From an uncultured Candidatus Micrarchaeota archaeon (GTDB taxonomy: Archaea; Micrarchaeota; Micrarchaeia; Burarchaeales; Fermentimicrarchaeaceae), in assembly GCA_963760615.1 (NCBI GenBank), contig CAVXDX010000004.1, forward strand, positions 64,001 to 128,000: 64,000 nucleotides of DNA. Direction: 5' to 3'. Numbering within the stretch: the stretch's first letter is position 1; each line of letters opens with the position of its first letter. A program made the position numbers and the translations under genes. The notes under the pieces are model-generated. The model had not been told where the DNA came from. It did not search any database and saw nothing but the letters and a program-made list of their open reading frames with translations. Positions 11,283 to 15,163 of this stretch are shown in pieces.

Positions 11283-12947
11283 TCAGAACCTGCTCCTCTT
11301 CACATAATGGGTGTGTAGCAGCTCCTCAGCCTTTTTGGAGAGTGGCTTTCCGAGCATCTCATCATAAATCTTCTTCACAATCGGATTTTCATGAGACCTG
11401 CGGAGCTTGGAGCTGCGGTCAGCAGAGTAAATTGCTTCAGTCCTCTTCCTTAGTATTTCAGGGTCGCGGTAGACCGGTTGCCCGCCCCCCCCGATGCATC
11501 CTCCAGGGCATGTCATTATCTCTATGAAGTGGTATTTGTCTTTCTGCGCGATGAGCTTGCGCGCGTTTGCGCCTCCATGCGCACAAGCAAACTTGATTTT
11601 CTTTCCTTTCAGTGTTATGCTGCCCTCCTTTATCCCCTTCATTCCTCGTATCTCTGAAAACTCAAGGTTCTCCAGCTCCTTGCCTGTTGCAAATTTATAC
11701 GCAGTTCTGAGAGCTGCTTCCATGACCCCTCCTGTCGCGCCGAAAATCACGCCAGCACCTGTTGAAATACCCAAAGTAGGGTCAAACTCCTCGTCATGCA
11801 GGGAAGCAAAATCAATATCCTTCATCTTTATGAGCTTGCCAAGCTCTCTGGTGGTGAGCACATAATCAACACCGCTTTTCATCTCCGGTCTGGTGGACTC
11901 AAACTTCTTCGCAGTGCACGGCATAATAGAGACAACAACTATCTTCTTGGGGTCTATGCCTGCTTTTTTTGCATAATAAGTCTTGATGAGCATTCCAAGC
12001 ATCTCATGGGGAGACTTGCAGGTGGACATGTTCTTCAGCAAGTCATGGTAGAAGAACTCCATCATGAGTATCCAACCCGGGCAGCATGTTGTTATCATTG
12101 GAAGCTTGCCGCCCTTCTCAACCCTCCTCAGCAGTTCAGATGCTTCCTCCATTATCGTCATATCCGCTCCCAAATCAACATCAAACACCTTTTCGAACCC
12201 GCACCTGCGGAGTGCAGCAACAGTTTTTCCCGTGACGAGCGTGCCAGCCGGCATTCCGAAAAGCTCGCCTAGTGCAGCGCGGATGGATGGCGCAACCTGT
12301 GCAACCACATACTTTTTACTGTCGTTGAGCGCAGCCATCACACCCTCCAGATGAGAGTACTCCGAAATGGCTCCCACAGGGCAGTTGAGTATGCACTGGC
12401 CGCAGCGTATGCAGGCAACATCTGCAAGAGGATGCTCCCAGTAGGGGGTGATATGCTCGTTGTGCGCCCTGCTTGCAAAGTCTATGGCAAAAACTCCCTG
12501 CACATCTGCGCACACGCGCACGCATCTCCCACAGTTTATGCACTTGTTATCATCTCTTACAACTGCAGCTCCCAAGTCAGGTTTGTATCCCTTTATCTGT
12601 GGGAATCTGGCTTTCCTCATTCCCACTTCATTGTAGATTTCGCACACTTCCAAATCATCCACAAGTCCACAGGAAGGCTCGGGCATCATGAGCTCCATGT
12701 TCAGCTTCCTTGCCTTCACAATTCGCTCGGAATTTGTGACAATGGAAGCGCCCTCCCTTGGCCTTGTAGAGCATGCAGTTACCAGCTTGCCATCCATCTC
12801 CACGAGGCATACACGGCAGCGCGCCTCTGGGAAGAGGCTGGCATGGTAGCAAAGAGTAGGAATAGTGATGCCGTTCTCTCGGCAGATGTCAAGAAGCGAC
12901 TTGCTTCCGTCCACCTCAATTCCCTTTCCATTGAGCTTTATCTTCAT
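11283..12947 (-). CDS. hydA: Group A [FeFe]-hydrogenase catalytic subunit (HydA/HndD-like)
   Basis: H-cluster motifs TTCCPGW, MPCTAKKFE, EIMTCPGGCIGGGGQP. N-terminal [2Fe-2S] Cys set and two CxxCxxCxxxC [4Fe-4S] motifs. Start moved to ATG 12947 (GAGGGT upstream). Confidence 0.95.
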   Translation of the reverse strand: MKIKLNGKGIEVDGSKSLLDICRENGITIPTLCYHASLFPEARCRVCLVEMDGKLVTACSTRPREGASIVTNSERIVKARKLNMELMMPEPSCGLVDDLEVCEIYNEVGMRKARFPQIKGYKPDLGAAVVRDDNKCINCGRCVRVCADVQGVFAIDFASRAHNEHITPYWEHPLADVACIRCGQCILNCPVGAISEYSHLEGVMAALNDSKKYVVAQVAPSIRAALGELFGMPAGTLVTGKTVAALRRCGFEKVFDVDLGADMTIMEEASELLRRVEKGGKLPMITTCCPGWILMMEFFYHDLLKNMSTCKSPHEMLGMLIKTYYAKKAGIDPKKIVVVSIMPCTAKKFESTRPEMKSGVDYVLTTRELGKLIKMKDIDFASLHDEEFDPTLGISTGAGVIFGATGGVMEAALRTAYKFATGKELENLEFSEIRGMKGIKEGSITLKGKKIKFACAHGGANARKLIAQKDKYHFIEIMTCPGGCIGGGGQPVYRDPEILRKRTEAIYSADRSSKLRRSHENPIVKKIYDEMLGKPLSKKAEELLHTHYVKRSRF

Positions 12948-12951
12948 ACCC

Positions 12952-14121
12952 TCACTTCTTTTTCCCAAGGTACGCCTCATAGTCTTCGGGGAAATGCTCT
13001 AGGCTTGTGAGTATGTGTGTGCCGCACGTCTCCCCAAGTCCGCAAAGCGAGGTATCCTGGATATGCGTGGCCAGCTCGCGCAGAATCTGCAAATCCTTCT
13101 TCTCGCCTTCACCACTCCTTATTTTCTTCAGCAGGTTGAGCATGCGGATGGTGCCCTCTCTGCATGGCGTGCACTTGCCGCACGATTCATACGTGTAGAA
13201 TTTCGCAATTGAATACACAATATCCACAATGTTGTGAGTCTCATCTATGAAAATTATGCTGTAGTTCCCATGCTGGCAATCTTCCTTGCATATTGCTTCT
13301 GGAGTGATGCTCATGTTCTTGTCAACAGGCATTATTCCCCCAGCGCAGCCAAAAGACATTGCCTTGAGCTTTTTCTCTGGGCGGGCAACATCTATGACAG
13401 AAGACATCTTCACGCCCAATGGAAACTCGTATACCCCCGGATTCTTGATGTTGCCTGAGAGGGAGAACAGCCTCAGGTTGGCATCCCAGTAGTCAAACAG
13501 CACAGCCTGTGCAGCGCAGGTGAGCGTCTCCACATTGTTTATTAGCGTCGGCTTGCCCCACAGCCCCTGCCTTGTCGGGTTTGGCGGCTTATACATCGCA
13601 GTCCCTCTGAAACCCATGATAGACTGGACAAGGGCTGTGGACTCGCCGCATACGTATGCGCCCGCTCCGCGAACAATTTCTATGCTCACGCCTTTCATAT
13701 CCGCGCGTGCAAGAATGTCCTCAATCTGTCCCTGCAGCTGGGGGTGGAGGTAATCATACTCGCCTCGCAGGTATACGAAGCACCTCTTCGCACCAATTGT
13801 ATAGGAGGCAATCAGAATTCCCTCAATAAGCGTCTGTGGGTTGCATCTGATGATAAGTTTGTCCTTGAAGCTGCCCGGCTCCCCCTCGTCGGCATTGCAC
13901 ACAACGAACCGTTCGTCTGCAGGTGTATCTCTGCAGGTTCGCCACTTCTGGGCGGTTGAGAAAGCCGCGCCTCCCCTTCCCACAAGCCCCTTCTTCTCCA
14001 AAATGGAGAGTACTCCCTCTGAGCCGAGCATACGCGCCTTCTCAAGCGCCTCCAAATTTGTCTGGTGGAATATCTGCATGAGCTCACTTCTTTTTAATCT
14101 TCTTTCTTCTTGAATTGGCAC
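12952..14121 (-). CDS. hydB: NuoF-like FMN/NADH-binding hydrogenase subunit (short HydB)
   Basis: GRGGAAF, CNADEGEPGSFKD, GAGAYVCGE, ESCGKCTPCREG, CGLG. Confidence 0.92.
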   Translation of the reverse strand: MPIQEERRLKRSELMQIFHQTNLEALEKARMLGSEGVLSILEKKGLVGRGGAAFSTAQKWRTCRDTPADERFVVCNADEGEPGSFKDKLIIRCNPQTLIEGILIASYTIGAKRCFVYLRGEYDYLHPQLQGQIEDILARADMKGVSIEIVRGAGAYVCGESTALVQSIMGFRGTAMYKPPNPTRQGLWGKPTLINNVETLTCAAQAVLFDYWDANLRLFSLSGNIKNPGVYEFPLGVKMSSVIDVARPEKKLKAMSFGCAGGIMPVDKNMSITPEAICKEDCQHGNYSIIFIDETHNIVDIVYSIAKFYTYESCGKCTPCREGTIRMLNLLKKIRSGEGEKKDLQILRELATHIQDTSLCGLGETCGTHILTSLEHFPEDYEAYLGKKK

Positions 14122-14536
14122 GCAGCTTCTTCAGGAGCAGCTGCACTCTCTCCACTGTCATCTTGGTGTGCGGCTCTCCATTTATGAGCATCGCAGGAGC
14201 CTCGTCGCAGCACCCGATGCAGGAAGTTTTGTAGAGGGAAAACATACAGTCCTTGGAGGTTTCCCCTATCCTCACGCCTATCTCTTTCTCAAGGAACTTC
14301 TCGAGCTTCATTCCGTTATTCAGAATGCAGGACGGCGAGCCGCAGATCTCAATAACATGCCTGCCCTGGGGCTCGGTGTGGAACATTGTGTAGAATTTGA
14401 CCACTCCGAAAAGCCTGGAGATGGGTATATTCTGCTCTACAGAAATCTTCTTGAGCATCTGCTCAGAAATATAGCCGTGCTTGTCCTGCGCCTCGTGCAG
14501 GATGTTCATAAGCAAAGGAGCGTTTTTACCTTTCAT
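14084..14536 (-). CDS. hydC: NuoE-like [2Fe-2S] subunit (HydC)
   Basis: CGSPSC and CIGCC..APAM motifs; VVKFYTMF. Confidence 0.92.
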   Translation of the reverse strand: MKGKNAPLLMNILHEAQDKHGYISEQMLKKISVEQNIPISRLFGVVKFYTMFHTEPQGRHVIEICGSPSCILNNGMKLEKFLEKEIGVRIGETSKDCMFSLYKTSCIGCCDEAPAMLINGEPHTKMTVERVQLLLKKLRANSRRKKIKKK

Positions 14537-14599
14537 CAGTTCATAATTCTCTAAAAATCCTTATATATTTAACCTATCTATAATTAGTGAGGCGTTTAT

Positions 14600-15163
14600 A
14601 TGGAGATGAAATACTTCTATACTTCGGGTTCATTTTTCAAGCAGGAGTACACACTTTCTCTGGCGCAGGAATATGCTGAGATGATTTTGTATGCGCTTGT
14701 GGCGTTCTCCCTTCCCTTCATTCTGGGGCACGAGCAGCTTCTTGTGGGCTCAGTGGTGAACTGCGCCCTAGTGCTCGCCGCGCTTAACCTGCGTGGGGCT
14801 CGCCTCTTGCCAGTCATACTTCTCCCCAGCATAGGTGCGCTGCTGGCCGGCATGATATTTGGCCCGCTGTCAGCATACCTTGTCTATATGCTGCCATTCA
14901 TCTGGCTGGGCAACTCAATCCTTATATTTGCAGTGAAGGAGCTGGTACTGTCTAGGGGAAAGAACCGCTTGGCAGCGCTTGTAGCAGGTGCATCTGCAAA
15001 GACTGCGCTTCTCTCTGCTTCAGCGTTCGCGCTCTTCTTGTTTGGGTTGGTACCTGTGCAGTTCATAGCAGCATTCGGCATACTGCAGCTTGCAACTGCC
15101 CTCTGCGGAGGAACTGCAGCTATTGGTGTGCAGGAAGCAAAGAGACGGCTTGTAGTGGTTTGA
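14600..15163 (+). CDS. Membrane protein, ECF transporter S-component-like
   Basis: About six TM helices in 187 aa; QLLVGSVVNCAL...LP..GN pattern like S-components. Divergent from hydC across 63 bp. Confidence 0.55.
   Translation: MEMKYFYTSGSFFKQEYTLSLAQEYAEMILYALVAFSLPFILGHEQLLVGSVVNCALVLAALNLRGARLLPVILLPSIGALLAGMIFGPLSAYLVYMLPFIWLGNSILIFAVKELVLSRGKNRLAALVAGASAKTALLSASAFALFLFGLVPVQFIAAFGILQLATALCGGTAAIGVQEAKRRLVVV

Follow-up and report, generated by a model that had tools for sequence, protein, structure and literature searches.

Non-bifurcating features of a compact HydABC-type [FeFe]-hydrogenase encoded by a Micrarchaeota archaeon

An uncultured Candidatus Micrarchaeota archaeon (assembly GCA_963760615.1) carries a three-gene hydrogenase operon, hydC-hydB-hydA, on contig CAVXDX010000004.1, within the 64,000-nucleotide stretch analysed here (contig positions 64,001 to 128,000; hereafter the window, to whose positions coordinates without a contig name refer). 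Our reading is that HydABC is probably (at roughly 0.65) a soluble, heterotrimeric, NAD(H)-linked [FeFe]-hydrogenase that does not bifurcate electrons. Judged from its sequence, HydB lacks every published mark of a bifurcating beta-subunit and carries those of the non-bifurcating ones, and HydA has lost one of its accessory Fe-S clusters.

The operon occupies 14536 to 11283 on the minus strand as three open reading frames (ORFs) arranged head to tail. A first-pass annotation of the stretch had named its motifs and domains, and all of them were found in the sequence where it had placed them. Two of its protein lengths were revised. HydB had been given 389 aa from a GTG at 14121 and HydA 565 aa from 12980, points to which the ORFs do extend upstream; public gene calls and relatives use shorter forms. 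The catalogued start of hydB is the ATG at 14079 (375 aa), 4 nt past the hydC stop, and relatives of HydA begin at the ATG at 12947 (554 aa). With these shorter starts, 4 nt separate hydC from hydB and hydB from hydA. The features of the operon are as follows.

14084..14536, minus strand: hydC, NuoE-like thioredoxin-fold [2Fe-2S] subunit, 150 aa
14207-14344, minus strand: HydC Cys65/70/106/110, in a Cx4Cx35Cx3C pattern
12952..14079, minus strand: hydB, 375-aa NuoF-core diaphorase with FMN and NADH sites and a single N3-type [4Fe-4S] cluster
13861-13896, minus strand: HydB NADH-site motif NADEGEPGSFKD, with S and K replacing the A and M of bifurcating enzymes
13642-13668, minus strand: HydB FMN-site motif GAGAYVCGE, with Y for the F of bifurcating enzymes
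13042-13182, minus strand: HydB Cys300/303/306/346, ligands of the N3-type [4Fe-4S] cluster
11283..12947, minus strand: hydA, 554-aa group A [FeFe]-hydrogenase, in which the H-domain is followed by an SSU-like tail
12771-12851, minus strand: HydA N-terminal [2Fe-2S] site
12642-12686, minus strand: degenerate remnant MPEPSCGLVDDLEVC of the His-ligated [4Fe-4S] site (FS4C/A4), aligning with HxxxCxxCx5C of T. kivui HydA1
12381-12542, minus strand: HydA 2x[4Fe-4S] sites
12072-12095, minus strand: H-cluster motif L1, ITTCCPGW
11898-11927, minus strand: H-cluster motif L2, IMPCTAKKFE
11475-11522, minus strand: H-cluster motif L3, EIMTCPGGCIGGGGQP, of the ExMxCPGGCxGGGGQP type

Domain content, signature residues and phylogeny of HydB

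Published work offers several ways to tell the two classes of beta-subunit apart. Losey 2020 used the extra Fe-S domains of the beta-subunit, three residues (in T. maritima numbering A/E232, M234 and F367, for which non-bifurcating enzymes have T/S, K/S/A and Y), and the GGPSG motif of the SLBB domain (PMC7311640). The equivalents of Schut 2022 are F182, A202 and M204 of A. mobile, together with clusters B2-B5 (PMC9304861), where BfuB bears a 4Fe-4S ferredoxin-type domain (IPR017896) for clusters B3/B4, usually at its C-terminus. According to Furlan 2022, every bifurcating [FeFe]-hydrogenase so far characterised has the C-terminal HydB domain with B3/B4, and the non-bifurcating ones lack it (PMC9499530).

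Pfam recognised only Complex1_51K, a weak SLBB match and NADH_4Fe-4S in HydB, in agreement with the earlier description of a flavin mononucleotide (FMN)/NADH core with one [4Fe-4S] site. The two domains that had been called missing are indeed absent: the 40 residues preceding the FMN domain contain no Cys and no N-terminal [2Fe-2S] domain, while at the other end no Fer4 match was obtained and the chain stops at the NuoF [4Fe-4S] domain. Such a Fer4 domain was detected at the C-terminus of P0292, a bifurcating representative used as control. The proposed motif differences also held, with S70, K72 and Y142 in place of A, M and F. Furthermore, the SLBB stretch reads FGCAGGIMP and lacks GGPSG, and three columns conserved as C, C and H in bifurcating representatives, in keeping with the Zn site in HydB of T. 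maritima, read I249, N283 and Y370.

These states are common to the family. Among 120 close HydB relatives (369-410 aa, 59-100% identity), every one is in the non-bifurcating state by all four Losey criteria, with T/S, K and Y at the three residues. The same uniformity in these 120 HydB and in 121 HydA relatives (see below) means that the features are not due to chance. Where source names are given, the close HydB and HydA relatives come from Micrarchaeota, Nanoarchaeota, Woesearchaeota and Pacearchaeota.

The criteria also agree with one another in a broader sample of 151 sequences, made of the Micrarchaeota HydB and the 150 best-matching representatives of clusters formed at 50% identity out of 1.8 billion proteins. 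M and F occur together in 29 of the 151, which represent the A/M/F plus GGPSG state (97% of the 29 have A at position '232'), and 22 of these 29 carry two CxxCxxCxxxC motifs in a C-terminal extension, as expected for 2x[4Fe-4S]. The clean non-bifurcating state (Y, with K/S/A/T) was found in 114 of the 151 sequences, none of which has the extension.

The structure prediction suggested in the first-pass annotation gave a confident AlphaFold2 model of HydB (predicted local distance difference test, pLDDT, 89; predicted TM-score, pTM, 0.89) that superposes on whole NuoF chains. Target-normalised TM-scores (TMt) reached 0.79-0.81 with Aquifex NuoF and 0.76-0.78 with the Thermus and Mycobacterium proteins, and the model covers just 0.53-0.76 of the chains from bifurcating enzymes. 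It is target coverage alone that separates the two classes; neither the bit scores against the PDB nor the Foldseek E-values of HydB do so.

The earlier note had also called for a HydB tree. We inferred one from 72 HydB/NuoF cores (IQ-TREE, LG+C20+F+G4), and it places the Micrarchaeota protein outside the clade with the bifurcating signature. HydBs with this signature form a single clade (SH-aLRT 96 with 72 rows, 100 with 34 rows). The Micrarchaeota HydB falls into a separate clade of compact sequences (support 98-99 with 72 rows; DPANN clade 97 with 34 rows), which comprises 10-15 rows, all in the non-bifurcating state. It includes a cluster with a protein from a metagenome-assembled genome (MAG) of a Thermoplasmata archaeon, and a 528-aa natural HydC-HydB fusion (P0246; PF01257 + PF01512 + PF10589) belongs to the same compact DPANN type. 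In the maximum-likelihood trees, the Syntrophomonadaceae HydB type adjoins the bifurcating clade, apart from the DPANN clade, suggesting a separate origin of the DPANN type. Forcing the DPANN and Syntrophomonas HydBs together in the 34-row data set (approximately unbiased, AU, test under LG+G4) gave a tree 22.9 log-likelihood units worse, which was not rejected (p-AU 0.096).

The missing Fe-S domains might in principle be supplied by a separate gene, as the first-pass annotation had noted; none was found in the genome. tblastn searches with the N- and C-terminal domains of bifurcating-type HydB had no match close to the operon, and the ORFs that they did match, all on other contigs, encode generic ferredoxins.

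The H-cluster, the lost His-ligated site and the proposed electron path

HydA contains the domains Fer2_4, 2x[4Fe-4S], Fe_hyd_lg_C and Fe_hyd_SSU (Pfam/NCBIfam), with PF02906 at 2e-94 and TIGR02512 at 501.8 bits for a cut-off of 405.95. Its three H-cluster motifs are intact, as had been reported, and their Cys ligands are invariant in 121 relatives, as are those of FS2 (the N-terminal [2Fe-2S]), FS4A and FS4B. The loss of the (Cys)3His-ligated [4Fe-4S] cluster was borne out by alignment to T. kivui HydA1, against which HydA lacks the His and one Cys, leaving the M3-type set of accessory clusters incomplete. The remnant segment is shortened, and it varies among relatives without a conserved His: the site is degenerate in all 121, with the two residual Cys retained in 72. 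In T. maritima HydABC, this A4 cluster joins the two protomers (PMC9499530); its loss removes the only other recognised entry for ferredoxin. The loss is specific to the clade of the Micrarchaeota protein, the site being kept in the HydA of a Syntrophomonadaceae operon (L011) and of two other Micrarchaeota genomes (G206 and G178).

The best solved relative of HydA is T. kivui HydA1 (577 bits; CpI 481 bits), and an S. wolfei-type HydA also matches this bifurcating enzyme best (626 bits). As both types share the same best match, neither HydA similarity nor the NCBIfam 'A6' label is diagnostic of function; the score of our HydA against NF040763 ('NADH-dependent [FeFe] hydrogenase, group A6'), 744.3 bits, is below the cut-off of 765. 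In the AlphaFold2 model of HydA the H-domain is confident, and residues 95-207 fall below pLDDT 50-60 and are uninformative on the degenerate site. HydC matches Pfam PF01257 (9.8e-42), with the expected Cys spacing confirmed. All three subunits are under purifying selection, with dN/dS against the nearest MAG (L006) of 0.074 for HydC, 0.049 for HydB and 0.030 for HydA.

Some residues of the two larger subunits depart from near-invariant positions of their families: HydA has T490 inside L3 (11475-11522), where 119 of 121 relatives have A, and Y208, where 113 have R, and HydB has A246 in the window, where 119 of 120 relatives have F.

From these features we infer that the three subunits form a complex in which NADH would deliver a hydride to the FMN of HydB. 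Single electrons would then pass from the N3-type [4Fe-4S] cluster of HydB to the N-terminal [2Fe-2S] of HydA, through its two [4Fe-4S] clusters and on to the H-cluster, where protons would be reduced to H2; the path is expected to be reversible, with H2 formation the proposed direction. The [2Fe-2S] cluster of HydC would sit beside the FMN, off the main path, like N1a in complex I. The H-cluster would have to acquire its [2Fe] subcluster without HydEFG. As both the ferredoxin-binding Fe-S domains of HydB and the His-ligated cluster of HydA are absent, the enzyme has no recognised site for ferredoxin docking or wiring, and its sequence thus predicts independence of ferredoxin. In a fermenting Micrarchaeota cell, such an enzyme would reoxidise the NADH derived from GAPDH, releasing H2. 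Since the conversion of NADH to H2 proceeds only while H2 pressure stays very low, the cell would rely on neighbours that consume H2.

Relation to known enzymes and alternative explanations

Much of this has precedent. The enzyme family is already catalogued (Greening 2024), and the mechanistic class, the criteria that define it and the example of Syntrophomonas wolfei are known. What appears unrecorded is the placement of a large archaeal clade in the non-bifurcating class, together with the loss of its His-ligated cluster, both as judged from sequence. Full-text literature searches found no paper that terms DPANN hydrogenases non-bifurcating and none that describes a Woesearchaeota hydrogenase as NADH-dependent; for Micrarchaeota, FeFe hydrogenase and NADH, they returned only a paper on DPANN halophily (in two versions), in which bifurcation is not discussed.

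Hyd1ABC of S. wolfei produces H2 from NADH without ferredoxin and has subunits of ~16 kDa, 407 aa and 63 kDa (Losey 2017, PMC5626996). We took the operon of a Syntrophomonadaceae MAG (L011 3107-6615; HydC 160 aa, HydB 407 aa, HydA 574 aa) to represent this type; it was the one useful locus from an alignment-based scan of genome contigs that otherwise gave mainly NuoF loci of complex I. The Micrarchaeota operon shares its gene order and its NuoE-like HydC, mirrors its subunit sizes (150/375/554 aa), and likewise combines a HydB reduced to the NuoF core, with the T/S-K-Y residues, and a HydA composed of an N-terminal [2Fe-2S], 2x[4Fe-4S] and the H-domain. Identity between the two operons is 40% for HydB and 47% for HydA. 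By contrast, the Micrarchaeota HydB is shorter (375 against 407 aa) and is placed by the trees in a different clade, with a joint clade not rejected; the L011 HydA still has its His-ligated site and exceeds the NF040763 cut-off, at 884 bits; and S. wolfei has HydEFG, none of which was found here.

Other non-bifurcating systems show related solutions. The HydAB of Syntrophus aciditrophicus is an NADH-dependent, non-bifurcating enzyme with the same beta-subunit signature (PMC7311640); its HydC is fused to HydB, an arrangement paralleled by the P0246 fusion and unlike the separate hydC described here. The hydrogenosomal hydrogenase of Caecomyces churrovis works with plain NuoE and NuoF to make H2 from NADH without ferredoxin; unlike ours, that system is eukaryotic, with NuoE and NuoF identified as complex I subunits, separately encoded and targeted to the hydrogenosome (PMC13556243). 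Aquifex aeolicus NuoEF (PDB 6hl2) provides the best sequence match of HydB (275 bits) as well as its best whole-chain structural match, although it is part of a respiratory complex I, whereas hydB and hydC here stand in an operon with hydA. The bifurcating references (HydABC of T. kivui, Acetobacterium woodii and Thermotoga maritima; PDB 8a6t, 7q4v and 7p5h) share the core fold of HydB (query-normalised TM-score, TMq, 0.83-0.89), the NuoE-like HydC and the best solved matches of HydA; the N- and C-terminal Fe-S domains and the Zn site of their HydB are absent from ours, which has S/K/Y, and the A4 cluster is lost.

The published picture of the archaeal enzymes differs from ours. Greening 2024 describes archaeal HydABC as electron-bifurcating group A3 enzymes linked to 2-oxoacid:ferredoxin oxidoreductase (PFOR) and glycolysis, lists at least six DPANN phyla with trimeric HydABC, and bases the bifurcating description on a model of an Altarchaeota representative; in the same survey, maturases were found in 8 of 130 hydrogenase-bearing archaeal genomes, and active enzymes were obtained by semisynthetic maturation (PMC11216029). 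Our operon resembles that group in joining a DPANN HydA to HydB and HydC, in its hyd6TM neighbour and in a lack of maturases that is shared by most members; unlike the bifurcating A3 description, its clade is without any Bfu feature. A second type does occur in Micrarchaeota. In G206 and G178 (L103:1465-3252, minus strand, and L104:1438-3282, minus strand), HydB measures 595-614 aa and reads DPGAFMN, GAGAFVCGE and GGPSGGC, with a Cys-rich N-terminal region of ~210 aa that has no Pfam match and no C-terminal Fer4, and the adjacent HydA keeps HxxxCxxCx5C. Two different trimeric hydrogenases therefore coexist in Micrarchaeota under one published A3 label.

The metabolic setting bears on the choice between explanations. 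The genome (1.14 Mb in 16 contigs, 91% complete) encodes one HydA and one NuoF homologue by whole-genome search; at this completeness, neither [NiFe] hydrogenase nor Ech, NuoD (PF00346), HydE or HydG was found, and for HydF only generic GTPase matches were obtained. We rejected the idea that hydB and hydC are a fragment of complex I, as PF00346 is absent and both genes stand in an operon with hydA. GAPDH is present, and GAPOR and Ldh/Mdh were not found in the genome, so that NADH needs a sink, to which there is no obvious alternative in the genome. One of the two GAPDH loci (contig C7:102437-102920) was matched in two pieces with an overlap of ~20 nt and in different open frames, which may reflect a frameshift or an assembly error. 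On the ferredoxin side, the genome holds at least three small 2x[4Fe-4S] ferredoxins and the following operon.

Contig C13:76429-79284: complete PFOR operon of four genes, gamma, delta, alpha and beta

No other ferredoxin sink was found in the genome, neither an Nfn/GltD-type enzyme nor an [NiFe] or Ech hydrogenase.

Several points weigh against an NADH-only enzyme. The discriminating residues are empirical, having been derived by Losey et al. from 17 enzymes, and with NADH as the sole donor, H2 formation is strongly endergonic except at pascal-level H2 (both PMC7311640). A published survey models the archaeal A3 enzymes as bifurcating (PMC11216029). HydE, HydF and HydG are absent from the genome, the native cofactor and the activity being predicted, as is the NADH:H2 activity of the clade at large. 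Finally, PFOR and ferredoxins are encoded with no other ferredoxin sink found, a physiology that a confurcating enzyme would suit.

The last of these points, together with the published assignment to group A3 and its link to PFOR and glycolysis (PMC11216029), forms the case for an electron-bifurcating or confurcating enzyme that oxidises NADH jointly with reduced ferredoxin, the role of the missing HydB domains being filled by an unrecognised site or by free ferredoxin; the retention of HydC and the presence of GAPDH next to PFOR and ferredoxins also speak for it. We consider it unlikely. HydB has no B-cluster domains, no A/M/F, no GGPSG and no Zn ligands, and the C-terminal domain is present in every characterised bifurcating [FeFe]-hydrogenase (PMC9499530), and the only matches to that domain in the genome are the generic ferredoxins on other contigs. 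In addition, PFOR is kept in three near-complete (96-100%) relatives without HydA (G103, G006 and G078; one congeneric, the other two from the same family), in which the phylum survey found HydB to be absent as well. As these hydrogenase-free relatives keep PFOR, ferredoxin must be reoxidised independently of HydABC, which weakens the objection drawn from the ferredoxin sink.

Just as improbable is an uncoupled dual-donor or ferredoxin-dependent enzyme, in which, as in clostridial CpI, ferredoxin would pass electrons directly to a cluster at the surface of HydA or HydC, and NADH would enter independently through HydBC. The 481-bit match of HydA to CpI and the presence of ferredoxins and PFOR agree with this possibility. 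However, the [2Fe-2S] that remains should point towards HydB within the complex, and S. wolfei Hyd1ABC does not use ferredoxin at all (PMC5626996).

We regard it as slightly less probable again that the protein does not function as a hydrogenase in vivo; the H-domain would then carry its [4Fe-4S] only, and the complex would serve as NADH:acceptor diaphorase or redox sensor, or be a relic. The failure to find HydE, HydF and HydG in the genome and the patchy occurrence of the operon in the genus and family point in this direction. Against this, the H-cluster ligands and L1-L3 are invariant in the 121 relatives and the dN/dS of HydA is only 0.03. Moreover, HydA from maturase-free archaea binds a synthetic cofactor and makes H2, and the cultured "Ca. 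P. syntrophicum", an inferred H2 producer, is also without maturases (PMC11216029).

The least probable alternative, an H2-uptake, NAD+-reducing enzyme of the same architecture that draws NADH from environmental or host H2, would fit the reversibility of the enzymes from S. wolfei and from S. aciditrophicus (PMC5626996, PMC7311640) and the exergonic direction from H2 to NAD+, but it is hard to reconcile with a genome that looks fermentative (GAPDH and PFOR present; Ldh and a respiratory complex not found), in which NADH needs a sink and not a source.

If HydABC is indeed an NADH-linked, non-bifurcating hydrogenase, its family acquires a broader meaning. More tentatively, at somewhat less than even odds, we propose that the compact HydABC dominating DPANN is a separate, strictly NAD(H)-linked lineage, assembled independently of the Syntrophomonas type and with both known ferredoxin routes shut. 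If true, the published 'bifurcating A3' label would be wrong for most DPANN genomes, and H2 release would be tied thermodynamically to H2-scavenging hosts or neighbours, giving partner dependence a concrete energetic basis. A bifurcating hydrogenase can clear NADH from glycolysis along with the ferredoxin reduced by PFOR, even when H2 is appreciable, and an NADH-only enzyme works at pascal-level H2 only; the type of enzyme would therefore decide between lone fermentation and life beside H2 consumers for these genome-reduced archaea. Classification by HydA phylogeny and the presence of HydB and HydC would merge two functionally different archaeal enzymes, which a few residues and domain checks can separate. 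The predicted trimer, with 22 Fe and ~1,080 residues, would be among the smallest NADH-to-H2 machines and of possible interest to enzyme engineers. The figure of 22 Fe is the sum for three [4Fe-4S], two [2Fe-2S] and the H-cluster, with one FMN expected per trimer; for Hyd1ABC of S. wolfei, Losey et al. reported 30 Fe.

The locus and its neighbourhood

The archaeal origin proposed in the first-pass annotation stands: among species-representative genomes, the closest loci are in Micrarchaeota MAGs (HydB identity 77-91%) and have the same neighbourhood, and the neighbouring genes are of archaeal type, namely deoxyhypusine synthase and PurP-type ATP-grasp genes, as well as the tRNA described below. 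Two features lie directly upstream of hydC.

14537..14599, no strand: intergenic region of 63 bp, A+T-rich, separating hydC from the divergent hyd6TM gene
14600..15163, plus strand: hyd6TM (name from Greening 2024), divergent 187-aa membrane protein without Pfam hits

The intergenic region probably holds the promoter; a TATA-like AAATATATAA lies upstream of hydC. In 11 loci of the compact type, hyd6TM and hydC form a divergent pair; the hyd6TM gene keeps synteny with the operon, and its product lies outside the enzyme core.

The order DHS-hydABC-hyd6TM-ZIP is common to another Micrarchaeota MAG. The GC content of the operon is 0.51, compared with 0.47 for the genome. Recent acquisition of the operon as an island was set aside, as this difference is small and the synteny is shared, though the distribution in the phylum is patchy: a NuoF homologue of any kind was found in only 16 of 301 sampled genomes, and the operon itself is patchy within both genus and family.

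Elsewhere in the window, Rfam identified a 101-nt tRNA at 1389-1489 on the plus strand (63 bits) that ARAGORN missed and that is probably an intron-containing archaeal tRNA.

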